Origin: Candidatus Altimarinota bacterium
Lineage (GTDB): Bacteria; Patescibacteriota; Gracilibacteria; UBA1369; GCA-2718715
Assembly (NCBI GenBank): GCA_041242255.1
Contig: JBESAV010000001.1
Span: 544,001 to 608,000, forward strand
DNA: 64,000 bases
Direction of reading: 5' to 3'
Shown here: piece by piece, positions 19,368-37,374 of the stretch
Layout of the letters: each line of letters begins with the position of its first letter
How positions within the stretch are numbered: position 1 is the first letter of the stretch
Translations under genes and position numbers: made by a program
The notes under the pieces: model-generated
Told to the model about the DNA's origin: nothing
The model's database searches: none
Seen by the model: only the letters and a program-made list of their open reading frames with translations

Positions 19368-19378
19368 CCCACCAAACT

Positions 19379-20113
19379 ATGAAACACACATATAAAATCA
19401 ACGGAGCAACTTGCCAAAGCTGTGGAGAAAAAGTCTCAAAAGTTCTTACTCAGATTGATGGGATTTCCAAAGCAGATTCACCAGAAACAGGAATAGTTAT
19501 AGTAGAAATGACTAAGCATATCACTACAAAAGATATGAACAAAGCCTTGAAAGACTCTGGTCATGGTAAGTACTCACTTGAGATGACCCAGCACGAGCAG
19601 ACCTCCAGTCCAGACAACACAGATCAAGCCAAGTCATGGAAAGACTACTGGCCACTTATTCTAGTGTTAGGTTATGTACTCTTAGGAACAACCCTGGGTA
19701 TGTATCTCACAACAGATTGGTCACTAATGATGGGAATGAGGCTATTCATGGGACTGTTTTTCCTAGCTTTCTCATTCTTCAAGATTTTAGACATTCCCGG
19801 TTTTGCAATGAGCTACATGTCTTACGACATAGTCGCAGCTAAGTGGATGAAGTGGGGTTATATTTATCCATTCTTTGAGTTAGCCTTCGGAATAGGTTAC
19901 CTAGTTGGATGGCAACTTTTATACCTCAACATAATAGTTGCTATAGTCATGGCCATAAGCTTAGTCGGAGTAGTTAAATCAGTCCTAAACAAAAAACAAA
20001 TCCAATGCGCCTGCCTCGGAACAGGATTCGATCTTCCAATGAGCACAGTAACAATAGTTGAAGACGGAGCCATGGTCCTTATGGCGATTTGGATGATACT
20101 TAACCTAATATAA
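19379..20113 (+). CDS. heavy-metal-associated (HMA) domain + MauE/DoxX membrane protein
   Basis: GATCQSC N-terminus; YPFFEL and IQCACLGT motifs; TM helices. Confidence 0.88.
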   Translation: MKHTYKINGATCQSCGEKVSKVLTQIDGISKADSPETGIVIVEMTKHITTKDMNKALKDSGHGKYSLEMTQHEQTSSPDNTDQAKSWKDYWPLILVLGYVLLGTTLGMYLTTDWSLMMGMRLFMGLFFLAFSFFKILDIPGFAMSYMSYDIVAAKWMKWGYIYPFFELAFGIGYLVGWQLLYLNIIVAIVMAISLVGVVKSVLNKKQIQCACLGTGFDLPMSTVTIVEDGAMVLMAIWMILNLI

Positions 20114-20115
20114 AA

Positions 20116-20628
20116 ATGAAAAAACTAATCTTACCACTAATTTTAATAGCAATCGTAATTGGAATACCATTCCTAACAATGCAAGAGAGTAAACTTCCTC
20201 CTGAAGTCCTCGAAGCAAATGCTGAAGTTAAAGTTCCAATAATGGAAAATAGCGGACATCAGTCTGATGTAAGCGGTATTCAATATAATTCTAACCCACC
20301 TACTTCTGGGCCACATTTTGCTGATTGGCACACAGAATGGACCTTTTATGAAGAAGAGCAGCCAATGGGTGGTTTAATTCACAATATGGAACATGGAGGA
20401 ATTGTTCTATTCTACGACCCAAGTATTTCAGATGAACAAAAGCAACTTTTATCAGATTACGTAGATGATACTTTTAAGATAATAGCCTCGCCTTACGAGA
20501 GACTTGAGGCTCCAATAGTTTTGGCAGCTTGGGGTGTCTATGAAGAGTTTGATGCCTTTGACTCAGATAGATTTGAGAGATTCTATAGGTTCAATCTAAA
20601 TAATGCCCCAGAAAACGTTTACCCTTAA
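20116..20628 (+). CDS. DUF3105 family protein
   Basis: YNSNPPTSGPH, LIHNMEHGGIVLFY, IVLAAWG. Confidence 0.85.
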   Translation: MKKLILPLILIAIVIGIPFLTMQESKLPPEVLEANAEVKVPIMENSGHQSDVSGIQYNSNPPTSGPHFADWHTEWTFYEEEQPMGGLIHNMEHGGIVLFYDPSISDEQKQLLSDYVDDTFKIIASPYERLEAPIVLAAWGVYEEFDAFDSDRFERFYRFNLNNAPENVYP

Positions 20629-20631
20629 GCC

Positions 20632-20955
20632 ATGAACTGGTTCTTCCCAATCCATTATTTCCTACACTTAATTTTCCCTGGAGTAGTTGCATACGCAGCT
20701 ACTCCTAAGCTTCCTCATAAATGGTGGAAAGTTTACATGGTTTTACTAGCAACAATGATCATCGACTTAGACCATCTCCTAGCGACACCAATCTTCGATC
20801 CAAATAGGTGCAGTATAGGTTTCCACCCACTTCATAGCCCAATAGCCATCGGAGTTTATGTCCTGATGATTTTCATCCCAAACTTCTGGGTTAGGGTAAT
20901 TGCCACAGGACTAATCTGGCATATTTTAGTCGACTTATTAGACTGCATGATATAA
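20632..20955 (+). CDS. DUF6122-like small membrane protein
   Basis: IDLDHLLATPIFDPNRCSIGFHPLHS. Confidence 0.75.
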   Translation: MNWFFPIHYFLHLIFPGVVAYAATPKLPHKWWKVYMVLLATMIIDLDHLLATPIFDPNRCSIGFHPLHSPIAIGVYVLMIFIPNFWVRVIATGLIWHILVDLLDCMI

Positions 20956-20979
20956 TTTAAATAAATTTAAAAATAAATA

Positions 20980-21429
20980 ATGAACAATTACAAAAAATTC
21001 GCTCTCATGATACTAAGCTCAAGCATTTTTATGTTTCTTGTAATGTATCTAAATATCTTCCAGTTATCTCATTTCTCGATAGGTCTAACACGAATCTACA
21101 TGACTCTCTTAATGGTAGCTCCTATGGTTTTAATCATGTTATTTTTCATGAAAGATATGTACAACAACAGCAAGTTTAATATAGCCATTATTTCAGGATC
21201 TATCGCCATCTTTATCATTAGCTTAATAGGTTTAAGGTCTCAGGTTTTAATAGGCGACATTCAGTGGATGAAAGCTATGATACCTCACCATTCTTCTGCC
21301 ATTCTAACAAGTTCTTACGCTAACCTAAAAGATCCAGAAGTCCAAGAATTAGCTCAAGAAATAATCCAAGCCCAAGAAAGAGAAATAGCAGAAATGAAAT
21401 CAATGATCGAACGACTTGAAGCAAAATAA
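20980..21429 (+). CDS. DUF305 (CopM-like) metal-binding membrane protein
   Basis: MKAMIPHHSSAI...IIQAQEREIAEM. Confidence 0.85.
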   Translation: MNNYKKFALMILSSSIFMFLVMYLNIFQLSHFSIGLTRIYMTLLMVAPMVLIMLFFMKDMYNNSKFNIAIISGSIAIFIISLIGLRSQVLIGDIQWMKAMIPHHSSAILTSSYANLKDPEVQELAQEIIQAQEREIAEMKSMIERLEAK

Positions 21430-21481: not shown

Positions 21482-21814
21482 TCAATTAGAGAGATAAATT
21501 ATAAATTCTTGTTTAAGGAGCTCCAGCCTAGTACAAAGTATATTATGTTGACTAGATAAATCTCCATATGCAAGAATTGACTTAATGAAGGACAAATAAT
21601 CCAATAAATAATCATATGCATGGGCATATTTATTTGAAATTTCTTCATCATCTTTCATTAGTTCTGTTAACTCAATGATGAAGTCATTTCCAAGGTACTT
21701 GCTTGCTTCCTCGACAGTTAGTGCAGTAACCTTGAGATCCAAGTCACTTGTAAGTTTTTCCATTATGCTTCTGCCTTCACGAATTATAACTTCAAGATTC
21801 CTTTCCTCAGTCAC
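21482..21814 (-). CDS. hypothetical protein
   Basis: 110 aa; GTG start with GAGG Shine-Dalgarno; own consensus promoter. Confidence 0.6.
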   Translation of the reverse strand: MTEERNLEVIIREGRSIMEKLTSDLDLKVTALTVEEASKYLGNDFIIELTELMKDDEEISNKYAHAYDYLLDYLSFIKSILAYGDLSSQHNILCTRLELLKQEFIIYLSN

Positions 21815-21905
21815 TTTAAACCTCTCTTGTTGATGTAAATGAACTTAACAGTTGTAGTTTAAGCACGGCTCACCGACTTAATCTAATCAATCTGTTAACA
21901 TTTCG

Positions 21906-21933
21906 ATTATACAAGCCTGTGTAAGTTTGTCAA
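21906..21933 (-). promoter_or_regulatory. consensus promoter TTGACA-16-TATAAT
   Basis: Reverse complement reads ttgaca aacttacacaggcttg tataat. Confidence 0.75.
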
Positions 21934-21959
21934 GTAATGTGTTTATCTAAATAACTTAC

Positions 21960-22265
21960 ATGAGTTTTATCAAAGAATTAAGATTAGCACCTGAGAAAGG
22001 CTAAATGGATTGGTTAAATATAGAAAAGAACATATATTGATGAGTAAGAAGTAATTCTTGGGAGCAAGTCGAATCTTTAATTGTTAGTCCAGAAGCTGAC
22101 CTTTCAGCTAGTATCTATGTAGATGAACAAGAATTTATACAAAGCTATATTTCAGAGGATGTATTTGAAGACTCAGTTGTTAATTACGGTGACTGCACTA
22201 GGTCACAATTAAATGCCCTAGGAAGTAGGTTAGAATCAATCGTCAACAGCACTTTAGACAAATAG
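21960..22265 (+). pseudogene. probable pseudogene (102 codons, 3 internal stops)
   Basis: One frame reads MSFIKELRLAPEKG*MDWLNIEKNIY**VRSNSWEQVESLIV...STLDK*. Confidence 0.4.
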
Positions 22266-22312
22266 ATCTTTTGCTAGATGAGATTCAATACTAAGTAAAC
22301 CTAGTGTAGTAT

Positions 22313-23566
22313 GTGTTTACTTTATTTCAAAATACGTATTCTCACCCAACAACTATGACCAAAGCAAACCTATTCTCTCTAACAATCACATTAATTCTTT
22401 TCAGCATATCAGGCTGCACTTTTCAAGACCAAACCTCCAACACAAATGAAATCAACAAAAATCAGCCAGAGCTAACCAGCGAAATCACAACTCAAGAAAT
22501 AGATAGCATAAGCGCTGAGAAACCTGAAGAAACAGTAGAAGATTCAGATCAAAATCAAGAGCCAGAAGAGCCAGAATTTATTCTTCCTGACGTAGACTAC
22601 ACATCCCTACCAACCAAAGATGTGACTGTTGATTCTGTAAAGTTTTTCCAAGAACCAATAGAATTAGAAAGTATCGATGGATTAGAAAATACTGAGTTTG
22701 GTTATGTGACTGAGGGCAAATATAAAGATTATATTTTTGGTAATTCAAGAGAGTACTATCAGTTCAGTGATGCTCTGACTATGTTCTACTTGAGACCTCC
22801 AGATCAAAAGACTTTATATTACATTTCTGAATACCCTAGGTTTCAAGAAGAAAATCAAAGTATTTCAGATTTTAGTATTCCAAGTCTTGAGTTCCAAGAA
22901 GAAAGCATTACTGCCAAAGGTAACCAAATAACAACAGATGGTAGATTGTATTATGACAAGTATATAATAGATGAAATTCAAGATTATGAGACTGTAAGTG
23001 CAGAAGACACAGGTTACACCCTATACAAAGATGGTTGGGCCTTTTACAGAATCATTCAAGATGACTTTTATATTCTTTACCAATACATCCCTCAAGATGA
23101 AGAGCTAAAAAGCCTAATCGAATCTATGTCTAGCTTCGAAAACAAAAACCATTGGAGATACTTTTTAATGCAAAGGTATGACGATGGATATATCACAACA
23201 GTTAACACCGGATACATGGGACTATTTGATGACCAAGGTCTAATTCAAGGCAAAGAGAGTACTCTCAATTTCGATAACCTAGAGCTAATCCATGATGGTC
23301 CAGAACTAAATTTATACACAGTAAAAGAATTCCTAGATAATGAGGATTATGAGTCTCAACTTTTGCAAGAATTGTGGACAACATATCAAGATGATTTAGC
23401 ATCTATTTCAGCAAGTATAGCAAATGGAGAACAAAACATAAGAAATATTCCAAATGTACCAAAAGATGAATTCCTAACCATTAACCCTATGTTAATCCAA
23501 ACAGACAATATGGGTGAATTCTCAGTATACATACGCTCCGACATAGTTCAGCCATTTGAGGCTTAA
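22313..23566 (+). CDS. acidic putative lipoprotein
   Basis: Lipobox ISGC after a hydrophobic stretch; the real start may be the internal MTKAN. Confidence 0.7.
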   Translation: MFTLFQNTYSHPTTMTKANLFSLTITLILFSISGCTFQDQTSNTNEINKNQPELTSEITTQEIDSISAEKPEETVEDSDQNQEPEEPEFILPDVDYTSLPTKDVTVDSVKFFQEPIELESIDGLENTEFGYVTEGKYKDYIFGNSREYYQFSDALTMFYLRPPDQKTLYYISEYPRFQEENQSISDFSIPSLEFQEESITAKGNQITTDGRLYYDKYIIDEIQDYETVSAEDTGYTLYKDGWAFYRIIQDDFYILYQYIPQDEELKSLIESMSSFENKNHWRYFLMQRYDDGYITTVNTGYMGLFDDQGLIQGKESTLNFDNLELIHDGPELNLYTVKEFLDNEDYESQLLQELWTTYQDDLASISASIANGEQNIRNIPNVPKDEFLTINPMLIQTDNMGEFSVYIRSDIVQPFEA

Positions 23567-23609
23567 AATCAACGAATATACGACAAACGATACTTATTAA
23601 TCTAATTAG

Positions 23610-24287
23610 ATGAATATAATCAAACGATATTTGTACATAGCCATAGGCTTATGTACATATTCCTTGCTAGCAATACTAATTCCCAACTTTTTAGGTATAG
23701 AAACTAGTTCTCATGGAATAACTTTTGATGATTTTGATTTTTCCACTTTCTTATTAGTTTTTTTGGTTTTTATAATTTTGATATACAAAGCAATCTACAC
23801 TAAGTCAGAATACAAATACATTATTCTAATAACTTTTATGTATGCATTTTTGTTTGTTTCATATAGCACTCCTCGATTTCAAGTTATTGAATTATCCGAT
23901 CAACATAAAGATCGTAAGGTAAACGTGAATGGATCAGAGTCAGGTGCAATGAGTTATAGTTTCACTAATTTATATCCTGCAAATGATCAATATATAGTTA
24001 CTCATGAACCACCATTTACATTAATACATTCAAAAGTCGATCAACCATATAATCATGATTTAGAAGCTCAACCACACTGGTTAAATTCAAGGGTCTCAGG
24101 CTTTCCCTTTTTATGGTTCTTAGACCCGATTGGAGCTAGCGTACGTGCATCTATAAATTACCTACATTTCTTATTAAACATGATTGTTTATTTCATAGTC
24201 TTTTTAATTCCAAATCTTTTAACCAAGCTAATATTCCAAAAATTTACACCTTTAGTTTTTGGAGACCAAGATATAGAACATTCTTGA
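23610..24287 (+). CDS. hypothetical multi-pass membrane protein
   Basis: About 4 hydrophobic helices; GFPF motif. Confidence 0.65.
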   Translation: MNIIKRYLYIAIGLCTYSLLAILIPNFLGIETSSHGITFDDFDFSTFLLVFLVFIILIYKAIYTKSEYKYIILITFMYAFLFVSYSTPRFQVIELSDQHKDRKVNVNGSESGAMSYSFTNLYPANDQYIVTHEPPFTLIHSKVDQPYNHDLEAQPHWLNSRVSGFPFLWFLDPIGASVRASINYLHFLLNMIVYFIVFLIPNLLTKLIFQKFTPLVFGDQDIEHS

Positions 24288-24687
24288 TATTTTCTAATTT
24301 TTTTAGATAAGGCAAAACTTCCTTAGGAAACAAATTTATTTCTTCGACTTGATTTAAATCTATAATCTTAATATCAGTCAAAACTTGTTGCTTTTTTTCA
24401 GGATCAAAACCAAGCTTATAATTTTCATCGAGCGTTTTACAAAGTATATAAACTTCCAAACCAAAGCTTCCTTTATATTCTGTTTCTCTAACAAATACAA
24501 TTCTCTCAGCTTTAGCTTTTACATTTATTTCCTCATCGATTTCTCTCTCTATTGCTTCAAATAAAGATTCATTTCCTTCAACACCTCCTCCCGGAAAAAC
24601 ATAATTTGTACCAAAGGTATCGCTATCATGCCTCACCAAAACAATTTTATTTTCATTGATAATTATACCTCTTACTCCAACTTTCAT
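24244..24687 (-). CDS. NUDIX hydrolase
   Basis: Nudix box PGGGVEGNESLFEAIEREIDEE. Confidence 0.9.
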   Translation of the reverse strand: MKVGVRGIIINENKIVLVRHDSDTFGTNYVFPGGGVEGNESLFEAIEREIDEEINVKAKAERIVFVRETEYKGSFGLEVYILCKTLDENYKLGFDPEKKQQVLTDIKIIDLNQVEEINLFPKEVLPYLKKLENIKNVLYLGLQKLKV

Positions 24688-24773
24688 TTTCTAATTTAAA
24701 TTACATTAATCTTCTCAACCCCCAAACAAACTCATCCATAAATTTATCTTTCTTCATATCATTTTGAAAAACA

Positions 24774-24851
24774 GAAAAGTAGTATCAATAATTTAGAAAG
24801 AGACCTTCGCAAGTATAAAAAACATTTAAATCCAAACTCGGTTCACCAAAG
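24774..24851 (+). pseudogene. remnant of a serine recombinase 3' end with degenerate att core
   Basis: Aligns by eye to 37221-37300 at about 64/80 nt, ending cggttcaccaaag versus tggtgcaccagag. Confidence 0.8.
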
Positions 24852-24975
24852 TAGACACATTTCGAACTGAATATTATGAAGAAATTATTAATTTACAAAA
24901 GCTAACTTTAGAAAAATACAAAGTAATTAAATTAAAAAGTACTATCAGAGCTAACTTGTACATTTATTATTTCAA

Positions 24976-25524
24976 ATGCTAGACTGCAGTCAAATAAAAA
25001 ATGAAAAAATGAGAGTTGGAGTAGGATTACTTTTAGACGAAGATTGTCATAATTCGATTAGAGAATTGCAAATAAACCTTTTAAGTAGAGGTCTTATTAA
25101 GAGTCCATTTATTCAGGAACCACATATAACAATCAAGTCACCTTTCGAGATTTCTACTATTCAAAATTTAGCTAACTACTTAGATGAAAAATTTGATAAT
25201 ACAAAAGAGATCATTGTAAAAACAAGTTCTTTAGATTTATTTGATAAAAATATTTTATATCAAGCGGTATCAAAAAACAAAATTCTACTAGATTTACATT
25301 ATGATCTGATCAAGTTTTGTAATGATAAAGGTGAATATGAAGGAGAAAATAAAGTTTTTCACATAACGATAGGGAGATCATTATCGAAGCAAATATTAGA
25401 GGAACAGATTAAATTTAAAAAAAATACCTGCAGTTTAATAGGGGTCGGTATTTTTTTATATAACGAAGAAACTAAATCTTGGATTGTAGTTTACAAAAAA
25501 AAGTTTATTGATTCTGACAATTAA
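24976..25524 (+). CDS. 2H phosphoesterase (2'-5' RNA ligase/LigT-like)
   Basis: Two HxT motifs (PHITIK, FHITIG). Confidence 0.85.
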   Translation: MLDCSQIKNEKMRVGVGLLLDEDCHNSIRELQINLLSRGLIKSPFIQEPHITIKSPFEISTIQNLANYLDEKFDNTKEIIVKTSSLDLFDKNILYQAVSKNKILLDLHYDLIKFCNDKGEYEGENKVFHITIGRSLSKQILEEQIKFKKNTCSLIGVGIFLYNEETKSWIVVYKKKFIDSDN

Positions 25525-25569
25525 CAATAATATCATCATAGAGATTTAAATATATTTTTAAGAAAAAAG

Positions 25570-27348
25570 ATGAAGTTACAAGAAATTTTACAAGTTGAAG
25601 AGAGTTTAAGCATACCTGAACAAGTTAATCGTGGAGATTTAGAATCAATTCAATCAAAAATACATGAAAGGGTAAGGCTTGTTACGGCAGCACTACCGTA
25701 TATAAACAACGTACCTCATTTAGGGCATATGGCAGGGAGTCATATTCCAGCTGATATTTTTGCCAGGTTTTCAAGAATGAAAGGCTATAATACTAAATTT
25801 ATAGGTGGTTCAGATGAGCATGGAACACCATCTGAGTTGGCTGCTGATTCATTAGGTCTTAATCCTGAAATCTTTTGTGACAAACTCCATGAGGTACATA
25901 AACAAGTTTATGATTGGTTTGATATATCTTATGATTACTATGGTAGAACATCAGAGTATAGGCATAGTCAAATAGTTGAATCATTTTTTTTAGGTTTACT
26001 AGATAATGATTTTATAGCAGAGAGAGAAGAACATATGTTTTTTGATATAGAAAAAGATAGATTTTTACCTGGAAGATACGTTTTAGGTACATGTTCCAAT
26101 TGTGCCAGCACAAATATGCCATATGATCAATGTGATAACTGTGGGGTTCTTTTTAATACTGATAACTTCCTCGATCCAGTTTCAACCTTATCTAACAGTA
26201 CTCCTGAGATTAGAAGCACTAAGCATTTATTTATTGATTTACCACTTCTACAGCCAGTAATTGAAGATTGGTTTAAGAGTAAAAAAGACTGGAATACTCT
26301 AACAAGAGGAATTACAAGCTCCTGGCTTAATCAAGGTCTTGAGCAAAGAAGCATAACAAGGGACTTGAACAGAGGGGTTCATGTCAATTATCCAGGTTAT
26401 GAAGATAAAGTTTTTTATGTATGGTTTGAGGCTCCAATTGCATATGTTTCTTTTTCAGATTCAGTTGGTGAAATTCAAGAATTTTGGGAGTCCAATCAAA
26501 GTGAAGTTTTTCACTTTTTAGGCAAAGATAATATACCTTTTCATACTATAATATGGCCTTCTATTATAGAGGGTTCTAATATTGGAATAAATAAGCCTGA
26601 AAAAGTTATTGGTTATTCTTATCTGAATTATGAAGGAGAAAAATTCTCGAAGAGCAGAAATGTAGGAGTCTTTTGTGATAAGCTCTTAGAATCCGACTTC
26701 CCAGTTGATGTATTAAGAGCATATATAACGCTTATTTTACCTGAATCTTCAGACGCAAATTTTAACTGGGAAGATTTAGTTTCCAAAATTAACAATGAGG
26801 TAATAGCAAACTTTGGTAATTATATTAATAGAGTCTTATCCTTTTTATTTAAGAAAAAAGGGGGGCAGTTAGATTCAATCCAAGCAGAGGATTTTGATGA
26901 CTTAGATAGGAATTTTATACAAGATATTTTCAACCTATTTTTAGAAATTGATGCAGATTTAGAAGACTGTAATTTTAAAAAAGCATTTAAAGGTGTTTTA
27001 AGCTTATCCTCATTAGGAAATAAGTTTTTCCAAGATTCCAAACCTTGGAAATTTATTTCTGAAAATCCTGATTACGTAAATAGAAAATTATTTTTATGCG
27101 TTTATTTAATAAAGGTACTAGGAATTGTTTCATCCCCTTTTATACCAGAAACATCTAACACAATCATGAAAATGTTAGGGAAAGCAAATAGTAATTGGAT
27201 GGACGCCTTAGATTACAGTGATATCAGTGGTATAAAGATAGACAAAAACCCAGAGTTGCTCTTTAAAAGATTAGAAGATGATTTTATAGAGAGTATGAAA
27301 GATTCAACTGAAGGTCATACAAACCTAGCTAGCTATTTCTATGAATGA
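25570..27348 (+). CDS. metG: methionyl-tRNA synthetase (archaeal/eukaryote-like type), island-borne
   Basis: ALPYINNVPHLGH, GSDEHGTP, Zn knuckle CxxC..CxxC, YVWFEAP, GKDNIPFH, KFSKS. Confidence 0.9.
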   Translation: MKLQEILQVEESLSIPEQVNRGDLESIQSKIHERVRLVTAALPYINNVPHLGHMAGSHIPADIFARFSRMKGYNTKFIGGSDEHGTPSELAADSLGLNPEIFCDKLHEVHKQVYDWFDISYDYYGRTSEYRHSQIVESFFLGLLDNDFIAEREEHMFFDIEKDRFLPGRYVLGTCSNCASTNMPYDQCDNCGVLFNTDNFLDPVSTLSNSTPEIRSTKHLFIDLPLLQPVIEDWFKSKKDWNTLTRGITSSWLNQGLEQRSITRDLNRGVHVNYPGYEDKVFYVWFEAPIAYVSFSDSVGEIQEFWESNQSEVFHFLGKDNIPFHTIIWPSIIEGSNIGINKPEKVIGYSYLNYEGEKFSKSRNVGVFCDKLLESDFPVDVLRAYITLILPESSDANFNWEDLVSKINNEVIANFGNYINRVLSFLFKKKGGQLDSIQAEDFDDLDRNFIQDIFNLFLEIDADLEDCNFKKAFKGVLSLSSLGNKFFQDSKPWKFISENPDYVNRKLFLCVYLIKVLGIVSSPFIPETSNTIMKMLGKANSNWMDALDYSDISGIKIDKNPELLFKRLEDDFIESMKDSTEGHTNLASYFYE

Positions 27349-28795
27349 TGTTTTAAGTAATAATTATAGAAAATGGCTTCACGAAGTTTTAGACTTATCT
27401 ATAGATTTCAAATTAGATAGTAGAGTTAACAAAAAAATAATATCCAATAGTGACATTAAAAAACTTTTAGCAAGAAAGTTACCATTTGAAGGAATAGATC
27501 TTGATGATATTTTAGATAGTTTTAAAACAGAAGTTATGCCATTTTGCACCAACTTTTCATCTAAAAACTTTATGGGATTCCCAGATTCAGGAAACTCTGT
27601 TGCAGCATTGGGAGCTTCAATTATAAAAGATTTTTTTCAACAAAATATAATAAATCAATCTTTTTGTTCACCCTCGGGAACATTTATAGAGATAAATGTT
27701 ATAAACTGGTTAAGAGATTTAATTGGTTATGAAACGAAAGATAACATATCAAGTATTATGGATGTGGGAGGTATTATCACAAACGGTGGAACTATGAGTA
27801 ATGCTATAGGTATTATGTTAGCACGTGAAAATAAGTCTCCCAATACACTTGCTAACGGCGTAAAGGCACCATCAAGATATAAGATAATTGTTCCAAAAGG
27901 TATTGGTCACTACAGTGTCAAATCCGCTCAGATGTGGCTTGGATGTGGTAACAATTTAATTGAAGTTCCAACTATCAATTTCAAATATGACTTAGAAAAA
28001 CTCAAAGAGGCACTTAATAATAATAAGGGTAATGTAATGGGGTTAGTAGCTTATGCTGGAGATAGTAGAACAATGACATGCGATGATTTTGATGAAATTT
28101 ACAACCTTGTGAAATCTATTGATGAAAATATATGGTTGCATGCTGATGCATGTCATGGGTTTTCCTTAAGTTTTAGCGAGCAGTTAAAAGAGAAAATTAA
28201 AGGTATCAATAAATTTGATAGTATAACAATTGATCCTCATAAGGTTATGTTAACTCCATATGTAATTAGTGCCATTTTAGTTAAAGATCCTGCTAAACTT
28301 AAAAGTGTTTCCTCTATATCTGACTTAATAATGAAGGAGCAATTCGCATTTGGTCAAATAACTCCATTCATAGGAAGTAAGTCTTGGGAGTCATTAAAGT
28401 TATGGTTTATGATGTTAAATTATGGAAAAGAAGGTTTACAAAATATGGTAAATGAAAGACACAATAGGGCAAAGTACTTACATGAAAAAATTAAAGAAAA
28501 TGAGAATTATATAACTCTTAATGAAGTAGACATTAATTCAGTAATGTTTATGGTTAAACCAAGTAAATGGGATGGTGATATTATTAAACTAAATAATTTT
28601 AATAGAAAAATTTACGACAAAATAATAGAAGATGGTTTATATTATTTACATACATTTCCAATTGAAGATTCAGGCGTTATATCTAAAGGAGAAACTCTAA
28701 AACCTCTAAGATATATGTCTGGAAATCCAAATTTAAAAGAAAAAGATATAGATGATATGATTAATTACATTGAAAAAATAAGTAAAAGTTTATAA
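27341..28795 (+). CDS. group II PLP-dependent amino-acid decarboxylase
   Basis: GGTMSN, GHYSV, WLHADACHG, SITIDPHK (PLP lysine), LKLW. Confidence 0.9.
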   Translation: MNDVLSNNYRKWLHEVLDLSIDFKLDSRVNKKIISNSDIKKLLARKLPFEGIDLDDILDSFKTEVMPFCTNFSSKNFMGFPDSGNSVAALGASIIKDFFQQNIINQSFCSPSGTFIEINVINWLRDLIGYETKDNISSIMDVGGIITNGGTMSNAIGIMLARENKSPNTLANGVKAPSRYKIIVPKGIGHYSVKSAQMWLGCGNNLIEVPTINFKYDLEKLKEALNNNKGNVMGLVAYAGDSRTMTCDDFDEIYNLVKSIDENIWLHADACHGFSLSFSEQLKEKIKGINKFDSITIDPHKVMLTPYVISAILVKDPAKLKSVSSISDLIMKEQFAFGQITPFIGSKSWESLKLWFMMLNYGKEGLQNMVNERHNRAKYLHEKIKENENYITLNEVDINSVMFMVKPSKWDGDIIKLNNFNRKIYDKIIEDGLYYLHTFPIEDSGVISKGETLKPLRYMSGNPNLKEKDIDDMINYIEKISKSL

Positions 28796-29508
28796 TGTTA
28801 GAATCTATAATAGATACGTTAGAAACGCAGCCCTTCCCTACTATTATATATGGCTCTTTTGCAACAGATAACAATACACAAAAATCAGATTTAGATTTAT
28901 TCTTTATAGATGATACAACAGACTCAGACGAAAACTTTGAATCTTTACTTTGCCTAGTTTTAGATATTCATTCTCGTCATGGCCTAAAAATAGACAATGA
29001 GGTACCTTATAAAAATAAACTAATAGTAAATAGTTTAGATTTAAGAAAATCTTTAAGGAGCGAAGGATTTAACATTTCTAATGATGATTTATACATCCCA
29101 GAAATAGAAAAAAGTCATACTTTTTTAAATTCTTATAAAGTAAGATTAAGATTAATATTTAATGCTTTTACAACTCCACACATTATATTAAATTGTTTGG
29201 ACGAGAGCTTATCTGAAATGAGAAGTAGTTTTGAAATTAAATTAGTCTTAATTCTATTAGCGCTACACTCATCACAAGAAAAAATTACTTTTTCTTCTCT
29301 ATTGCATAAAGCTTTATATTCGGAAGCAGGAGCATCTGAAGACATGTATTTAGGCTATAAAATCAATGAAACTGTAATTAATAATCTAAAGATGATAATT
29401 TCAAGCACATTAAAAAAACTTGAAAATACTGGGATTGTTTGTTTGACGAAAAATCAAATAGTACTTACAGTTGATAAGGAAGAATTACTCTCTATTATAA
29501 AAAGTTAA
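28795..29508 (+). CDS. Pol-beta-like nucleotidyltransferase domain protein
   Basis: IIYGSFA...SDLDLFFI motif; TAATG coupling to the upstream gene. Confidence 0.8.
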   Translation: MLESIIDTLETQPFPTIIYGSFATDNNTQKSDLDLFFIDDTTDSDENFESLLCLVLDIHSRHGLKIDNEVPYKNKLIVNSLDLRKSLRSEGFNISNDDLYIPEIEKSHTFLNSYKVRLRLIFNAFTTPHIILNCLDESLSEMRSSFEIKLVLILLALHSSQEKITFSSLLHKALYSEAGASEDMYLGYKINETVINNLKMIISSTLKKLENTGIVCLTKNQIVLTVDKEELLSIIKS

Positions 29509-29512
29509 TATT

Positions 29513-30412
29513 ATGGAAAGACCTTTTGATTATTCTATATCTAGTGAAGGAATAGTAAAATCATTCGATTTTGATTATGATTTAATCCAAAGTAGGGGTG
29601 ATCAAATTGGGGTTAGTAAATTGATAAGTAATCCAGTATTTGTAGTGGGATCACCAAGGTCAGGCACAACGGTTTTAGGAAATGTATTATCTTTACATGA
29701 CAGGATAGGTACTGGGGAAGAATCTTTATTTTTACTTCATCTTTTTAGAATTTTTTCAGATCTTCACAAAGGAGATAATAGAAGAAAAACCAGAAATCTA
29801 TCTGAATATATCGAAGAAGATGATTTATTATTAAATATGCAAGAATTTTCAGATAGGATAATGGGTAGTTTACTCCAAAGAAAAAACAAAGATATTTATC
29901 TTGATCATACTCCTTGGTATGGATCAATTTCTGGATTTATAAAATTATTGTATTCTGATTCAAAATTTATACATATAATTAGAGACGGACGTCAAGTGGT
30001 ACGCTCTTTAGGAGAATCATACAACAAAGGTTTTTCGTGGGCTGGTAAAAGTTTTGAGCATAGAGTAAAGATTTGGGTTTCTCAAGTTCAAAATTGTTCC
30101 AAAATGCAGCAACATTTTGAAAGTGATTATTTAGAAGTTTATTATAATACACTTCATGATACTCCTCTTAGTTTATTCAACAGTATATTTTGTTTTTTAG
30201 GTTTAGAAAATAATGATGAAATATTAGATGGGCTATCCGTTAGCTATGCCACTCCAGTTTCAGGAATTACTAAAGAAGAGATGAGTGTTGGTTATGACAA
30301 TAATGGATGGCCTCAGAATTGGACTAGTGAAGAAATAGATACATTTTATTGCTTAGCCTCTGATTTAATGGAAGAAAAGTTTGGTGACAAATGGGATACC
30401 ATCTATATATAA
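29513..30412 (+). CDS. PAPS-dependent sulfotransferase
   Basis: 5'-PSB motif VVGSPRSGTT and 3'-PB motif IIRDGRQVVRS. Confidence 0.9.
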   Translation: MERPFDYSISSEGIVKSFDFDYDLIQSRGDQIGVSKLISNPVFVVGSPRSGTTVLGNVLSLHDRIGTGEESLFLLHLFRIFSDLHKGDNRRKTRNLSEYIEEDDLLLNMQEFSDRIMGSLLQRKNKDIYLDHTPWYGSISGFIKLLYSDSKFIHIIRDGRQVVRSLGESYNKGFSWAGKSFEHRVKIWVSQVQNCSKMQQHFESDYLEVYYNTLHDTPLSLFNSIFCFLGLENNDEILDGLSVSYATPVSGITKEEMSVGYDNNGWPQNWTSEEIDTFYCLASDLMEEKFGDKWDTIYI

Positions 30413-30530
30413 GTTTCAAAAAACTTTTAACTAGTTATTATTTCTATTTAATAACACACAAGTATTCACTATATTGTTATTAAATCATACTCTAACTTTA
30501 TATTTTTATAATCTGTATTTAAACTTTTAA

Positions 30531-30762
30531 ATAGAATTACACAGTGTTTATGACGAAAAAGTTTTGTACATAGCCAAAAAACCGTTCTGCTACATCATCA
30601 AATGTAACAACATGTCGGACTGGTGCTCAGAAACTCATCTCTCTTGAACCAATGATAAAGCACTTAATCACCACAGATATGACAGAGTTTATGTCTGTAG
30701 ATACTAGCAAATGCTATGCATTAATAGAGGACCACCAAAAAGAATTAGAGGTAATATTTTAG
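30531..30762 (+). other. att junction: recombinase 3' remnant joined to displaced tail of the intact recombinase
   Basis: Left half reads IELHSVYDEKVLYIAKKPFCYIIKCNNMSDW. Core TGGTGC is at 30621-30626. Right half is open for 46 codons (GAQKLISLEP...EVIF*) in the same register as recombinase codons GA. Confidence 0.65.
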
Positions 30763-30829: not shown

Positions 30830-32059
30830 TTATAGTCTCTTATTCACTTTATTAAATATTTCTTGACTATATTTATTTGTAGATTTTAGTTTAGAGAGGT
30901 AGTAAACATATTTTGTAGTGTATTCTTGTATATGAAATTTATATGCATATTCTTTTACTAAGACATACAAGTCACTAGTTAATGAATTAATTTTATCACA
31001 ATCACTTAACGCTCTTATAGTATCTTGATGGTTAATGATTGTATCCATAATTTCTTTAGTAACTGTATATAGTGAATTATATTCATCATTAAAAAATTTT
31101 TCAGTACTGCTGACACTTGATTCTACTAGATTATTTAGATGTACATGCATTATTTTCCATATACCTTCACCTAGTGATATTAAGTATCCAGAAGTATTAT
31201 TATTTACACTCTTTAACATTTGTTTATAGATATCTAAAAATCTAATAAAATGTAATGTATCACTAAAGACAGCATATTGGCTATCATGTATTGAGGAATA
31301 TATTTCATGCTTTAGAAATCGTGGGCCTAGTAGAAATTCTTTTGCATAAATATCATCATTATCGAATAGTATAGAGTCTTCATTTAATATAGATCGATGT
31401 ACAATTGATATAACAAGATTATCAATTGGGTCAGTATATCTTAAATCAGGATTACATTCTAATCCCATATATATAGAAAATATGAATTCTTGTGAGTCAA
31501 CTACTACATAATCCATAAATTTTTCATTACTTGGTATTACCCAAGATAGAATTGAATACAAGTTATCTTCTGTAGAGTTAACAACAATTTGATCTATGTT
31601 GAAAATAAATAAATCTACTACATTTAAGAATCTATTTTTAGATTTATAACTAATTTCATCAAATATAAAACGCTTAAGTTTATCTTTATCTATAAAGTTA
31701 AAATCCAAATGCCTGGTAGTAGAAAAGTGAATGAAAATAATTAACCCAATGATTAAAAATAAGAAAATGATCATATCCAATACAACTATAAATAATGGAT
31801 TTATAACTAAGGCATACAAATTTTCATATCTTAAAATTATAAACGGAAAAAACAATGCTAGGTACTTAAAAATTAGAACAATTAGGGCCATGCCTGTCCA
31901 AAAAAATAAAGCTTGGTTTATTAGCTTCTTATATAGACTCATCCTAAATTTCCACTCATTAGTTCTAAGCTGATATGCTGCTAATACAATACCAATAACT
32001 GTCACAAAGCCTATTAGATCTATTCCTATATAAGAATTTAGTAACTCATTTCGAATCAT
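30830..32059 (-). CDS. hypothetical membrane protein (3 N-terminal TM helices + helical domain)
   Basis: 409 aa, extremely AT-rich; downstream of and co-oriented with the OLD gene. Confidence 0.65.
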   Translation of the reverse strand: MIRNELLNSYIGIDLIGFVTVIGIVLAAYQLRTNEWKFRMSLYKKLINQALFFWTGMALIVLIFKYLALFFPFIILRYENLYALVINPLFIVVLDMIIFLFLIIGLIIFIHFSTTRHLDFNFIDKDKLKRFIFDEISYKSKNRFLNVVDLFIFNIDQIVVNSTEDNLYSILSWVIPSNEKFMDYVVVDSQEFIFSIYMGLECNPDLRYTDPIDNLVISIVHRSILNEDSILFDNDDIYAKEFLLGPRFLKHEIYSSIHDSQYAVFSDTLHFIRFLDIYKQMLKSVNNNTSGYLISLGEGIWKIMHVHLNNLVESSVSSTEKFFNDEYNSLYTVTKEIMDTIINHQDTIRALSDCDKINSLTSDLYVLVKEYAYKFHIQEYTTKYVYYLSKLKSTNKYSQEIFNKVNKRL

Positions 32060-32153: not shown

Positions 32154-33815
32154 TTAAGTTAGCTTAATATGGTTAGCTTTAGCAATGATAGAGCAAATAT
32201 TATCCATTTTATCTGAAACATCATACAGATCTTTAAGGTTATCCTTTGTAAAATATTCTACAAAATTCTTAGCATATTTAATTTTATTTGCTTTTAATTT
32301 TTCCCCTTCTCCTTTCGATATTTTATCCAAAGTATTAGCTATTGGGGTAAATCGACGAGGCTGTTGGCTAATCAGCTTATCGTAAAAAGATTCGAGTGAT
32401 TCTTTAGGAATGTAGTTTTCTGTTTCCTTACCATGAGTAATCCACAGATAAAAATTGTTTTCTTTTTTATATGCTTCTTTAATACTATTAACTCTTTTTT
32501 TGAGAGGGTCATTAGTGTTTTTTTTATCGCTATCGCATATAACTATAGAATTTCGATTTGCTTTTAAAATCGAAAGTTTTTCGTCAGGTATTTCTTCATC
32601 AACTCCGTAATGTGCAAGTAATGATCGAGCTGTAAATAAAAATTGATAATGAATATTCTCTATTAATTTACCATCAGAGAAAATATCTAACATTTTTTTA
32701 TAGTAAATTCTATCGGATGGACCCTCAACCCATATAACTGCATTTGACTGTAATATATCACTAGCCTTTGCTCCAATATCATCTATCACTAAAGAGTGAC
32801 TACTATAGTTTAATACATTTGATAGGATTGTCTTTGAACCTTCTTTATATAAATGAATTAGATTTGTATTTTTATCTCCAGAAAAGAAGTTAATAGTCAC
32901 AGGTGAATGTGTTGTTAAAATGAAAGTACAACCTTGTTCACTTAGTTTTTTTATGTAATGCAGAATATTTCTCTCCAGGTTAGGATGAGTATTGTTTTCT
33001 AATTCCTCCAATAAAAAAATACAGTTCGTAATCTTCTTTTTTGTAATATCTGGACCTAAAATTGTCACTACCAATAAAAATAAAACAGTTTTTATTCCGC
33101 TACCTGTATTTGAAATGGGTATAAATTCGCCATTTTCTGTTTCCAGTCCTATTTCCCATAAATCAGTACCTTTTTGATTAAAAACCCTTATGTCAGTATA
33201 TTTAGAATCTGGCGAAACAATTTTATTTAATTCTTTTAAAAGAGTTTCTGTTACCAGTTTATACCTTGCACTCCCATATACTTCTTCCTGCAGGTACAAC
33301 CTTATAATATTTGTTATGCCAGTTCCGTTTGATTTGATTGTAAGTTTATTAAAATTTGGACCACTAACAGAACTAATAAAAATGTTATTTTTTTGTTCGC
33401 TTATGATGTTTCGGTCAGCATCAATTCTAAAACCTATTAAATTGTTTAGCTTATTATCTAATTTATTTAAGATTTTTTTTTGCTCATTATTCGTAAGTTC
33501 ATCAAATTTTATATTATTACCTCCATTATATAATTGAGATTTAACATAGTAGTTAACTGGTATAATATCATTCACAGAATTAAGTACTTTAACTGATTCA
33601 GAATCAATATCATCTTTTTGTATTGTTAAATAGAGTTTAGCCCCATTCGTCCTAATTTCTTTATCTAACAACTGTTCTATTGCATCTAGATAGGTGCTTT
33701 TACCTACATTATTTTTACCGATAATCAGATTTATAGGCAAAATACTTTGAATATTTTCTTCTTCAAAGTTTAACCCTTTGTATTTTTTAACTCCAATAGA
33801 AATTTGTAACGACAT
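32154..33815 (-). CDS. OLD-family ABC ATPase-TOPRIM nuclease (probable anti-phage)
   Basis: Walker A GKNNVGKS; GSG signature; LEELENNTHP; TTHSP; TOPRIM WVEGPSD and CDSD. Confidence 0.88.
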   Translation of the reverse strand: MSLQISIGVKKYKGLNFEEENIQSILPINLIIGKNNVGKSTYLDAIEQLLDKEIRTNGAKLYLTIQKDDIDSESVKVLNSVNDIIPVNYYVKSQLYNGGNNIKFDELTNNEQKKILNKLDNKLNNLIGFRIDADRNIISEQKNNIFISSVSGPNFNKLTIKSNGTGITNIIRLYLQEEVYGSARYKLVTETLLKELNKIVSPDSKYTDIRVFNQKGTDLWEIGLETENGEFIPISNTGSGIKTVLFLLVVTILGPDITKKKITNCIFLLEELENNTHPNLERNILHYIKKLSEQGCTFILTTHSPVTINFFSGDKNTNLIHLYKEGSKTILSNVLNYSSHSLVIDDIGAKASDILQSNAVIWVEGPSDRIYYKKMLDIFSDGKLIENIHYQFLFTARSLLAHYGVDEEIPDEKLSILKANRNSIVICDSDKKNTNDPLKKRVNSIKEAYKKENNFYLWITHGKETENYIPKESLESFYDKLISQQPRRFTPIANTLDKISKGEGEKLKANKIKYAKNFVEYFTKDNLKDLYDVSDKMDNICSIIAKANHIKLT

Positions 33816-34029: not shown

Positions 34030-35334
34030 ATGTCACAACCTGTATTTACAAGTAAGTATTTTGATATCTACAAAGATAGGATAGAGATCAAAATGTTCTT
34101 AAATAAAGACACTATTTTTATTTCCTCTATACACAGTATGAGAAAAAGACTCGGTGGGATTAAAGTTCATACCAGTGGAAAAGATTATATTCTCCCTCAT
34201 AAAAATCCTGCAAAAGTAATTGAAGTAATATCAAAGCTAAAAAATGGCGAGGAAGTTATAATCGAAGAGAAAAAGAAAGTAAAAACTAAGAAGGTTCAAG
34301 AAGCTACAAATCAAGAAAGTAACCCAACAAAAGAAGATAATACAGTCTGGTACAAGACATGGTGGTACATGTGTATTCTTTTTTTCTTTACGATAGTATT
34401 ATGGTTTATTACCATACCAGTTTATACGTATTTGGCTTACTCAAATAAAGATAAAGAAGACGGTCCACACTACAAGAAAGTTTTAACTGCATTGGTAGTA
34501 TTTTCTATTTTAATAGTTCTACCTGTTAGTTGTAGTCAATCATTACAAGAAGATGAAGCTATGTCTTCGATTGAAGTTATGATACAAGAAGGACGACTAG
34601 ATGATGCGGCTGATAGTATGATTAGTACTCAGTATAAATACTCAGATAGATACAAGGCATTAGCTAAAGAACTTAATTACGCTGCACCATCATATGCAAA
34701 GGTTTTATTGCTATCTCTTACTGATGACCAGATTAAAGATTTAGAGTCTGGTACATTAGCTATAAATAAATCAAGTTACAGCACTATAAATGATAGATTG
34801 AAAGAGAACCTTAATACACTTTTACCTGATTTAGAGGAGATACAGAAAGAACATGATCAACTTGCCTTACTTAATAAATTAGGTGAAATAGAGTACAGTG
34901 TTATCCAAAAAGATGAATACAAAAATCATGATGTATATGTACTAGAAGTTCCTAATGTTATAAACCAAACAGTCCTGGAGTCCTTTGCTAGAAGCTTCGA
35001 GGAAAACCTTTGTGAAAGAGATTGTTTCATCAATCTATATAGTATTGAAGATGCATATTGGACCAGAGAAAAGAAAAGCGATTTAGGAAGTGCTTTTATG
35101 GATGAGTCAGCTGATTTGGTTATATCAGGGCAAATATCACAAGAAGAAGTTTTAATAAGAAATAGAAGGTATCTTCTGGAGTTAGATGAAGAATACTTAG
35201 AATATATAGCAACAAACCACATAGGAAGGTTGGAGCTAGATTTTAGTGGAGGGCCATCTATTTACTATCCATATCCAATAATATCTGATCTTGACTTACT
35301 CGATGAAAGAAGACAGGAATTAGAGAACTTATAA
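34030..35334 (+). CDS. membrane protein with N-terminal PH-like domain and extracytoplasmic region
   Basis: Short beta-rich N-terminus; WYKTWWY followed by two TM segments; cargo of element A. Confidence 0.65.
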   Translation: MSQPVFTSKYFDIYKDRIEIKMFLNKDTIFISSIHSMRKRLGGIKVHTSGKDYILPHKNPAKVIEVISKLKNGEEVIIEEKKKVKTKKVQEATNQESNPTKEDNTVWYKTWWYMCILFFFTIVLWFITIPVYTYLAYSNKDKEDGPHYKKVLTALVVFSILIVLPVSCSQSLQEDEAMSSIEVMIQEGRLDDAADSMISTQYKYSDRYKALAKELNYAAPSYAKVLLLSLTDDQIKDLESGTLAINKSSYSTINDRLKENLNTLLPDLEEIQKEHDQLALLNKLGEIEYSVIQKDEYKNHDVYVLEVPNVINQTVLESFARSFEENLCERDCFINLYSIEDAYWTREKKSDLGSAFMDESADLVISGQISQEEVLIRNRRYLLELDEEYLEYIATNHIGRLELDFSGGPSIYYPYPIISDLDLLDERRQELENL

Positions 35335-37309: not shown

Positions 37310-37374
37310 ACCTCCACCCAGCTAAGCCGGACTAGCCCCTCAAGCTAGCGCGTCTACCATTCCGCCACTGGTGC
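37288..37374 (-). tRNA. tRNA-Leu(GAG)
   Basis: GCACCAGTGGCGGAATGGTAGACGCGCTAGCTTGAGGGGCTAG...GGTTCAAGTCC...GGTGCACCA; long variable arm; encoded CCA. Confidence 0.97.

Follow-up and report, generated by a model that had tools for sequence, protein, structure and literature searches.

Mobile gene clusters that carry their own copy of an aminoacyl-tRNA synthetase (aaRS) are an already known kind of element. In the passages of PMC8323819 and PMC9113183 devoted to them, AgnB2 (a LeuRS, agrocin 84) and SbzA (an IleRS, SB-203208) are read as immunity genes, and the relevant part of PMC8323819 proposes the same role for the MetRS genes of agrocin-84-like actinobacterial clusters. A MetRS paralogue accompanied by a cupin and a lysine N6-monooxygenase was described by Aravind and colleagues in 2010 (PMC2922099). 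The present study deals with a five-gene operon, hereafter the cassette, at positions 24976-30412 of a 64,000-nucleotide stretch from the genome of a Candidatus Altimarinota bacterium (contig JBESAV010000001.1, positions 544,001 to 608,000; the whole stretch is called the window). The operon encodes a 2H (LigT-like) phosphoesterase, a methionyl-tRNA synthetase (MetRS), a group II pyridoxal 5′-phosphate (PLP) decarboxylase, a DNA polymerase β-type (Pol-beta) nucleotidyltransferase (NTase) and a sulfotransferase. Tentatively, it is read here as a compact mobile member of a widespread, undescribed family of small-molecule clusters that make a nucleotidylated amine, with the MetRS serving as an insensitive copy of the target.

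As with AgnB2 of agrocin 84, SbzA of SB-203208 and the agrocin-84-like MetRS clusters, an extra, diverged and full-length aaRS is co-transferred with the cassette. In the agrocin-84-type clusters the aaRS accompanies the biosynthetic enzymes of a small molecule that contains a nucleotide, and the product of the cassette would be of this sort too. A mobile element is involved in both cases, and exporters occur in relatives of the cassette, with none in the version found in the window. The core of the cassette consists of a group II PLP decarboxylase and a Tam41-like NTase and not of AgnA/AgnC1- or MccB-type enzymes, a distinction that is drawn from text descriptions and leaves room for some shared components. 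In scans of plasmid records, neither the decarboxylase nor the NTase gave a match on Rhizobium/Agrobacterium plasmids. Like the cassette, the system of Aravind and colleagues (PMC2922099) features a MetRS paralogue that moves horizontally and is connected with secondary metabolism; it differs from the cassette in the cupin and the lysine N6-monooxygenase, which were found neither in the window nor among 20 neighbour proteins of related loci.

A further likeness is to FrbH of the FR-900098 pathway, in which an NTase and a PLP decarboxylase likewise act as a unit, their substrate resembling an amino acid and the nucleotide serving as a handle. FrbH reportedly also decarboxylates, and a Nudix enzyme is said to release CMP in FR-900098 biosynthesis. 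Pfam scans of the window revealed neither phosphoenolpyruvate mutase nor any further phosphonate gene. The analogy is one of logic and not of family, the NTase domain of FrbH being MobA-like (PF12804, according to the section of PMC6697681 concerned with it) and that of the cassette Pol-beta. A cluster combining an aaRS, a group II decarboxylase and a Pol-beta NTase was not found described in the main text of the open-access papers searched. What appears to be new is the core of group II decarboxylase and Tam41-like NTase, with or without a HisC/CobD-like enzyme, and its spread over the Candidate Phyla Radiation (CPR), DPANN archaea, Firmicutes, Chloroflexota and Actinomycetota.

Organization of the operon

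All five genes lie on the forward strand at exactly the positions given in an earlier note on this DNA, and Pfam and NCBIfam matches bear out the family that it had assigned to each of them (coordinates are collected in Table 1). The last four genes overlap or nearly abut, as had been said: behind a 45-nt gap between the 2H and MetRS genes follow an 8-nt overlap of the MetRS and decarboxylase genes (ATGAATGA), a 1-nt overlap of the decarboxylase and NTase genes (TAATG) and a 4-nt gap between the NTase and sulfotransferase genes. The reported AT-richness is likewise borne out by a G+C content of 0.275-0.318 (1-kb bins, 25001-30000) versus 0.33-0.42 over most of the window. Judged by sequence motifs, the catalytic sites are intact in all five cassette proteins. 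A sequence scan detected no excess of promoter-like sites (35, as against 38.4 in shuffled sequence) or terminator-like sites (2, as against 2.0) and thus does not delimit the operon. The source genome is a single contig of 1,000,477 bases and 98.5% complete.

The cassette MetRS is a second copy

The MetRS of the cassette is a second copy and not the housekeeping gene. A separate housekeeping MetRS of 512 aa and of the short type is encoded at 858-860 kb of the same genome (G000, contig C1) and is 23% identical to the cassette enzyme. The case in which the earlier note would have been wrong, namely that of a sole and vertically inherited metG, thus does not apply. The cassette enzyme scores 500.4 bits against TIGR00398 (NCBIfam cut-off 336.35) and matches the Pfam domains tRNA-synt_1g (PF09334, E 1.3e-129) and the MetRS anticodon domain PF19303. 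Its motifs are complete, comprising HLGH, KFSKS, two CxxC pairs and the anticodon PW, and it belongs to the zinc-knuckle type found in E. coli and archaea. Among 40 relatives of the source genome, 39 carry a short-type MetRS and only one (G040) a knuckle-type paralogue.

The best homologues of the cassette MetRS are only 45-46% identical, none above 46% being found among 5.8 billion clusters, and the nearest ones bear the source labels Pacearchaeota, Nanoarchaeota and Gracilibacteria. Its branch has a length of 1.19, compared with 0.17-0.5 for its neighbours in the tree. At 143 near-invariant columns (at least 95% conserved in the 119 nearest homologues) it deviates 14 times; for those homologues the median is 1 and the maximum 12. 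An intact enzyme that has diverged this strongly is consistent with its being an immunity copy.

The MetRS of G040, 44% identical to that of the cassette, was considered as a second instance of the cassette and rejected, since its neighbourhood is unrelated. This relative of the same order carries the knuckle-type enzyme alone (L010, G040:C15:14990-19654), no short type having appeared in the survey of the 40 relatives, so that one MetRS type may have taken the place of the other in the G040 lineage.

Conservation of the core in other microbes

Together with the window, 30 loci that encode a decarboxylase 34-58% identical to that of the cassette form a set of 31; they come from contigs of genomes and metagenomes, from plasmid records and from one genome belonging to the phylum of the source organism. 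Two of them, L114 and L025, have the same sequence and are both included in that count; four loci are contigs shorter than 6 kb, so that the partner counts are lower bounds. The NTase accompanies the decarboxylase in 27 of the 31 loci; MetRS and a HisC/CobD-like PLP enzyme occur in 13 each. ArgRS, an NHL/arylsulfotransferase (ASST)-like beta-propeller, a NUDIX hydrolase and a methyltransferase are found in four loci each. Two loci each contain a sulfotransferase (window included), a 2H protein (window included), a HIT hydrolase, an APH-type phosphotransferase or an adenylate-forming enzyme, and a single locus each a radical SAM enzyme or a type I phosphodiesterase. Clostridia, Bacilli, Anaerolineales, Saccharibacteria, Alphaproteobacteria, Actinomycetota, Woesearchaeota and Nanoarchaeota are recorded as hosts.

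The order of the core genes varies. MetRS-decarboxylase-NTase is seen in the window and in L019, L020 and L024, decarboxylase-NTase-HisC-MetRS in L113 and L115, MetRS-decarboxylase-HisC-NTase in L119 and decarboxylase-NTase-MetRS in L121. In L024 and L032 the NTase is fused to a CobD/HisC-like PLP domain. This HisC/CobD-like partner scores about equally as histidinol-phosphate transaminase and as threonine-phosphate decarboxylase, both of which act on phosphate esters. The conserved neighbourhood envisaged in the earlier note was thus recovered in part: the MetRS/decarboxylase/NTase core recurs across phyla, and the exact five-gene set of the window occurs in none of the other 30 loci. A 2H gene (L022) and a sulfotransferase gene (L028) are each found in one other locus, never together, and in genomes without an extra MetRS. 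Since both recur so rarely, the sulfation in the "sulfated and/or nucleotidylated" pathway formerly proposed would be a local tailoring step at most; the notion of a dedicated pathway as such is favoured by the conservation of the core.

The fullest relative resides on the Bacillus cereus plasmid pRML02, which holds metG, the NTase, an aminotransferase of class I/II, a CatA-like acetyltransferase, an acyl carrier protein (ACP) and the decarboxylase, together with an adenylate-forming enzyme, three ABC-transporter genes and an integrase. One Streptomyces plasmid combines the decarboxylase with a HisC-like enzyme and an MFS transporter, and another the decarboxylase with the NTase and a phosphotransferase. 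For the radical SAM enzyme of L024, viperin- and MoaA-type enzymes are the closest match, with scores that fall far short of the cut-offs. By family, the accessory NUDIX, HIT, 2H and type I phosphodiesterase proteins cleave nucleotide-X bonds or nucleotides. Taken together, the relatives look like clusters for the biosynthesis of a small molecule with export, apparently centred on a nucleotidylated amine derived from an amino acid. A dedicated tRNA or recoding system was also considered and rejected: no tRNA gene lies inside 24 related loci, tRNAs being confined to contig edges or flanks.

The decarboxylase and the nucleotidyltransferase

The decarboxylase matches PF00282 with E 2.3e-47 over profile positions 4-375 of 375. 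Its D-P-H-K motif is invariant, and H300-K301 are kept in all 20 aligned sequences; by analogy, K301 is presumably the lysine that forms the Schiff base with PLP. Characterised or solved relatives (2,4-diaminobutyrate, aromatic, glutamate and cysteine-sulfinate decarboxylases) reach only E ~1e-26, too remote to point to a substrate, and an exhaustive phmmer search delimits a distinct subfamily of 141 representatives at E<=1e-30. Fusions of decarboxylase and NTase, in both orders, account for 15 of the 37 representatives of at least 560 aa among the 150 best hits. The decarboxylase was found in none of the 40 relatives of the source genome. A phage origin was considered and set aside, as the profile of the decarboxylase retrieved from viral contigs only one distant relative, 22% identical.

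The NTase is barely above the cut-off of PF18765 (27.1 versus 26.9 bits, E 4.7e-6). Across 14 homologues, G20, S21, D32, D67 and E69 never vary and D34 hardly does. An AlphaFold2 model (mean predicted local distance difference test score, pLDDT, 90) depicts a Pol-beta fold followed by a C-terminal winged helix, an arrangement shared with the CDP-diacylglycerol synthase Tam41/Mmp37. Tam41 also provides the best full-length fold match (6ig2_A, Z 9.8, rmsd 3.7 for 181 aligned residues) and the second one (7ecd_A, Z 8.9), all other fold matches covering the winged helix only. The cassette enzyme nevertheless differs from Tam41 in sharing only 13% identity with it (Foldseek E 1.3e-3), in lacking a match to the Tam41 Pfam family and in having no lipid context. 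The minimal Pol-beta NTase domain is also that of the MNT-HEPN (MntA/HepT) and AbiEii systems, and there is a weak NCBIfam match to MntA (E 0.001, 18.9 bits versus a cut-off of 60). In contrast to these, the cassette NTase has no HEPN or toxin partner, a longer helical region, a winged-helix C-terminus and a constant PLP-decarboxylase partner. The family of the cassette NTase was found in four of 401 sampled genomes of the phylum, the source genome counted. On a contig of 8,566 bases, a MetRS (P0016) and an NTase (P0277) are encoded that are 43% and 40% identical to those of the cassette, respectively; judging by these sequences, the contig may represent a closer relative.

Linkage to MetRS and ArgRS across loci

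In the 13 loci with a MetRS, this gene lies at most 8.1 kb from that of the decarboxylase, mostly adjoining it in an operon. The MetRS-linked decarboxylases are spread over all major branches of the decarboxylase tree, and the linked MetRSs fall into at least three separate lineages of the MetRS tree. Eight of them belong to one bacterial knuckle-type group, that of the window stands beside Gracilibacteria-type enzymes, and those of L029 and L119 are nested within DPANN housekeeping enzymes. These scattered positions indicate that different MetRS lineages were recruited to the same decarboxylase-NTase pair. In four of the six genomes tested (G000, that of the window, and G041, G042 and G044) the linked MetRS is an extra copy; in G000, G041 and G042 the other MetRS is of the short type and the cluster MetRS of the zinc-knuckle type. 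The linkage of MetRS, decarboxylase and NTase across phyla favours a dedicated pathway in which the aaRS is a resistance copy or a working part, the two roles that the earlier note had put forward.

ArgRS linkage is confined to one actinomycete clade of the decarboxylase tree, with the gene order decarboxylase-methyltransferase-NTase-ArgRS, which is translationally coupled in Nocardia.

Two further genomes were noted in this context. The 1.1-Mb Bacilli genome that contains the decarboxylase-NTase pair L023 (G447) has three MetRS genes, two of the knuckle type (contigs C52 and C83) and one of the short type (C5). The contig with the L023 cluster stops just past the start of the NTase, and one of these MetRSs may belong to that cluster. 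In the Streptomyces genome of L027 (G049), a second, partial MetRS-like match (C2:1127787-1128521, profile positions 2-245, in a 569-aa frame) may be a MetRS-like ligase paralogue unrelated to the cluster.

Proposed function and alternatives

The function tentatively favoured for the operon and its relatives would comprise the following steps. The group II PLP decarboxylase would convert an amino acid, or an intermediate derived from one, to an amine, and the Tam41-like Pol-beta NTase would join a nucleoside monophosphate (NMP) to this amine substrate, yielding a nucleotide-amine conjugate. In the version of the window, the conjugate would be tailored by the sulfotransferase and the 2H phosphoesterase. 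The product would act as an antimetabolite directed at MetRS, of the kind that mimics an aminoacyl-adenylate, and the cassette MetRS would escape its inhibition and sustain the charging of Met-tRNA in the producer. NUDIX (four loci), HIT (two), 2H (two), phosphodiesterase (one) and viperin/MoaA-like radical SAM enzymes (one), whose targets are nucleotide-X bonds or nucleotides, were counted in favour of this proposal; HIT hydrolases are immunity enzymes against peptide-nucleotide inhibitors of aaRSs (10.1101/2020.03.04.977132).

Several observations weigh against an antimetabolite with an insensitive MetRS. A plain decarboxylated amino acid attached to NMP does not obviously imitate Met-AMP, and product, substrate and target are all deduced from sequence. 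Pfam detects no transporter family in the five genes or the scanned flanking open reading frames, the cassette has no HisC/CobD-like enzyme of the sort present in 13 of the 31 loci, and neither APS (adenosine 5′-phosphosulfate) kinase (PF01583) nor ATP sulfurylase (PF01747) was found in the genome, CysD/N-type sulfurylase not having been searched for. The linked MetRS is the sole MetRS in G043 and in the Woesearchaeota genome G045, and those of L029 and L119 look like housekeeping enzymes, deviating at 1 and 4 of the 143 columns. The cluster-bearing genome G050 and the alphaproteobacterial G445 have no extra MetRS. In actinomycetes the linked ArgRS is the only ArgRS of the genome (G046, G047 and G048), and it is fused in frame to the NTase in L025 (G046) and in the independent metagenome contig L114. 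Such an ArgRS, sole and in one lineage fused to the NTase, is easier to reconcile with a working partner of the pathway than with a spare copy of the target. In this alternative view, the aaRS might supply Met-tRNA or enzyme-bound Met-AMP for the aminoacylation of the nucleotide-amine, or form a complex with the NTase. The sole linked copies in these five genomes, the single-frame fusion, the coupled operon of Nocardia and the complete anticodon-binding domain kept in all linked MetRSs speak for such a role, as does the parallel of ascamycin, whose aaRS genes acmD and acmF are thought to supply the alanyl group, as stated in the portion of PMC9113183 that treats them. It is nevertheless considered unlikely: Pfam and NCBIfam reveal no transferase dependent on aminoacyl-tRNA among the five genes of the window, the host MetRS would supply Met-tRNA already, the independent recruitment of MetRS lineages as extra copies is what duplication of a target predicts, and the ArgRS linkage, being restricted to a single clade, possibly reflects one event. 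A broader proposal, which is possible and somewhat doubtful, takes the decarboxylase-NTase-aaRS clusters as a new enzymatic route by which nucleotides are conjugated with amines or amino acids, the conjugates acting on one particular aaRS (MetRS in most lineages, ArgRS in actinomycetes) and the clusters being spread by mobile elements from CPR and DPANN to Bacillus and Streptomyces plasmids. In its boldest form, at which the NTase-ArgRS fusion hints, the aaRS would be a catalytic partner of the NTase in an aaRS-coupled nucleotide chemistry without described precedent.

The resemblance of the NTase to Tam41, which transfers CMP onto a phosphate monoester, points to a further scheme akin to the Kennedy pathway. 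A decarboxylated and phosphorylated amine or amino alcohol would be activated to an NDP-linked head group with which a polymer of the surface or a lipid is decorated, its phosphate coming from a kinase or, through the HisC/CobD-like enzyme, from a pre-phosphorylated substrate, and the aaRS would do no more than buffer translation during the depletion of the amino-acid pool. In Streptomyces the decarboxylase and NTase adjoin a phosphotransferase of the APH/choline-kinase fold, and the HisC/CobD family is generally known to act on phosphate esters of amino compounds. Nucleotidyl activation before tailoring also has a precedent in FrbH, which cytidylylates 2-amino-4-phosphonobutyrate according to the part of PMC6697681 on this enzyme. 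The scheme is nevertheless improbable, as the cassette contains no head-group transferase or membrane protein, and the recruitment of at least three MetRS lineages as well as the HIT and NUDIX genes, ABC and MFS exporters and ACP of the relatives are left unexplained. A role in conflict or defence, in which the NTase would modify tRNA or make a signal, the decarboxylase deplete an amino acid upon infection, 2H and NUDIX enzymes reset the system and the MetRS restore charging, is given little credence. Pol-beta NTases do include tRNA-modifying toxins; in PADLOC the NTase weakly matches PDC-M05A and PDC-S09 (E 1.4e-5 at best) and the NUDIX protein PDC-S07 (E 1e-13), a viperin-like radical SAM enzyme occurs in L024, and an OLD/GajA-like ATPase is encoded beside the cassette in the recombinase-borne island. 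That ATPase gene, however, lies in a separate element, as shown by the joints of the metagenome run X5 at 30620 and 37288 and the low cover over 30.6-35.8 kb, and neither Pfam nor PADLOC finds HEPN or another toxin partner in the neighbours. Viral contigs yielded the single distant relative mentioned above, the ACP, adenylate-forming enzyme, acetyltransferase and transporters of the relatives are typical of biosynthesis, and on chemical grounds a fold-type I decarboxylase cannot act on an esterified aminoacyl-tRNA. Finally, the five genes might be unrelated cargo without a shared function, which would agree with the uniqueness of the exact set among the loci compared and with a sulfotransferase that has no PAPS source in the genome (PF01583, PF01747). 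Mere juxtaposition is highly improbable in view of the overlapping and abutting genes, the recurrence of the core trio across phyla in varied orders and as fusions, and the 2H and sulfotransferase genes that each adjoin the decarboxylase in another phylum. For the MetRS-decarboxylase-NTase trio, this recurrence and the fusions come close to refuting it.

MetRS is a validated antibacterial target, and to our knowledge natural inhibitors of it are barely known. A cluster family with its own MetRS would thus be a direct lead to a MetRS inhibitor and to new decarboxylase/NTase chemistry. If the antimetabolite reading is true, the pathway would be among the few specialised-metabolite or antagonism functions in a genome of ~1 Mb. 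The family is readily testable, a complete version being available on the plasmid of a cultivable Bacillus and minimal versions on Streptomyces plasmids.

Accessory enzymes and sulfate supply

The 2H protein matches PF13563 (2_5_RNA_ligase2; E 1.5e-8, 35.3 bits versus a cut-off of 27) and, below the cut-off, a PRK13679-like NCBIfam model (E 1.6e-9). It holds two H-x-T motifs, PHITIK and FHITIG, and has no solved relative by sequence at E<=0.1. In L022 its homologue follows the decarboxylase directly. The sulfotransferase matches PF13469 (Sulfotransfer_3, E 1.3e-24) and displays, as read by eye, a P-loop-like SPRSGTT motif and an RDGR..S motif. Its nearest solved relatives are protein-tyrosine sulfotransferases and the sulfotransferase domains of the polyketide synthases OLS and CurM (E 2e-8 to 8e-5), and in L028 a homologue likewise stands directly after the decarboxylase. 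The earlier note had remarked on the lack of synthesis genes for 3′-phosphoadenosine 5′-phosphosulfate (PAPS) in the window; for PF01583 and PF01747 this extends to the whole genome, so that the sulfotransferase is left without an evident PAPS supply.

A beta-propeller protein is encoded beside the decarboxylase or NTase in L022 (11972-13171), L029 (1676-2614), L120 (10094-10990) and L197 (12427-13305). It matches NHL repeats and the PAPS-independent arylsulfotransferase ASST weakly (E 1e-4 to 9e-4) and may be an alternative enzyme for sulfation or tailoring.

The NUDIX hydrolase gene upstream of the cassette is possibly tied to it in function, and NUDIX genes near the decarboxylase are also found in L023, L032 and L118. 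An inverted repeat of 28 nt (24670-24697/24999-25026, 86% complementary) arises because the NUDIX and 2H proteins begin with similar N-termini (MKVGV and MRVGV). Going by this sequence, the true start of the 2H gene may be the internal ATG near 25009.

Borders, mobility and neighbouring genes

The cassette is mobile and horizontally acquired, as indicated by the failure to find its decarboxylase in any of the 40 relatives and its type of MetRS in more than one of them, its low G+C content and its attachment-site-like (att-like) borders; on this point, too, the earlier note is confirmed. A degenerate 24-nt pattern has only two matches, at 24828-24851 and 37277-37300, where none would be expected, and about 75 nt around the left repeat align with 37230-37305 (Table 1). 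Long direct repeats flanking the island were sought and rejected: exact 11-mers of the tRNA end gave no match in the 36 kb upstream, and the diverged repeat emerged only through the coordinates of the joints described below.

Table 1. Features of the cassette and its borders in the window.
Feature	Position	Strand	Remarks
NUDIX hydrolase gene	24244-24687	-	PF00293, E 1.2e-11; divergent, just beyond left repeat
Left att-like repeat	24828-24851		diverged copy of tRNA-Leu 3′ end and flank; left cassette edge
2H (LigT-like) phosphoesterase gene	24976-25524	+	182 aa
Second-copy MetRS gene	25570-27348	+	592 aa
Group II PLP decarboxylase gene	27341-28795	+	484 aa
Pol-beta NTase gene	28795-29508	+	237 aa
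Sulfotransferase gene	29513-30412	+	299 aa
Middle att-like copy, weak	30612-30632		from alignment; right cassette edge and left edge of recombinase element
Large serine recombinase	35765-37309	+	Resolvase, Recombinase and Zn_ribbon_recom domains; adjoins tRNA-Leu
tRNA-Leu(GAG)	37288-37374	-	ARAGORN; integration target, 3′ end towards island

The stretch is present in five marine-metagenome runs from two studies, and among the seven runs retrieved by the search none is listed as RNA. Run X5, of the second study, contains a strain that is diverged by ~2.6%, with the operon intact in contigs over 21811-30625 and almost no cover over 30.6-35.8 kb. Two joints, 30620->37288 and 30625->24844, are each seen in a single contig, in which the sides measure 30 and 72 letters, and the low cover was weighed only in combination with the joint. 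The breakpoints coincide with the three att-like cores, from which it follows that the tandem array at the tRNA-Leu gene comprises the operon (24844-30625) as one unit and the OLD-ATPase/recombinase segment (30.6-37.3 kb) as a separate one. The joint 30625->24844 may stem from a circular form, from a second copy in tandem or from an adjacent cassette whose left end is similar. That the operon fills one element exactly, as previously claimed, agrees with the att-like copies and strain joints at both of its edges. No recombinase is encoded in the cassette, so that it would be moved by the large serine recombinase next to it, a candidate for doing so in trans. The operon would thus be cargo without a recombinase of its own, carried in a tandem array at the 3′ end of a tRNA gene.

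The ATPase of the adjacent element is an ABC-ATPase of the OLD/GajA/AriA-like group (553 aa, 32154-33815, reverse strand) with matches to AAA_15 and AAA_21 and, in PADLOC, to AriA (E 9e-19) and GajA (E 5e-16). It is flanked by a 409-aa protein (30830-32059, reverse strand) without family match, whose N-terminal part is hydrophobic by eye, and by a 434-aa protein (34030-35334, forward strand), also without family match. This group of genes in the recombinase-borne element is possibly defence cargo. To the left of the island, a run of forward-strand genes (17781-21429) encodes a multicopper oxidase, a MauE/HMA protein, DUF3105, DUF6122 and DUF305 and is of the type that handles copper or other metals.

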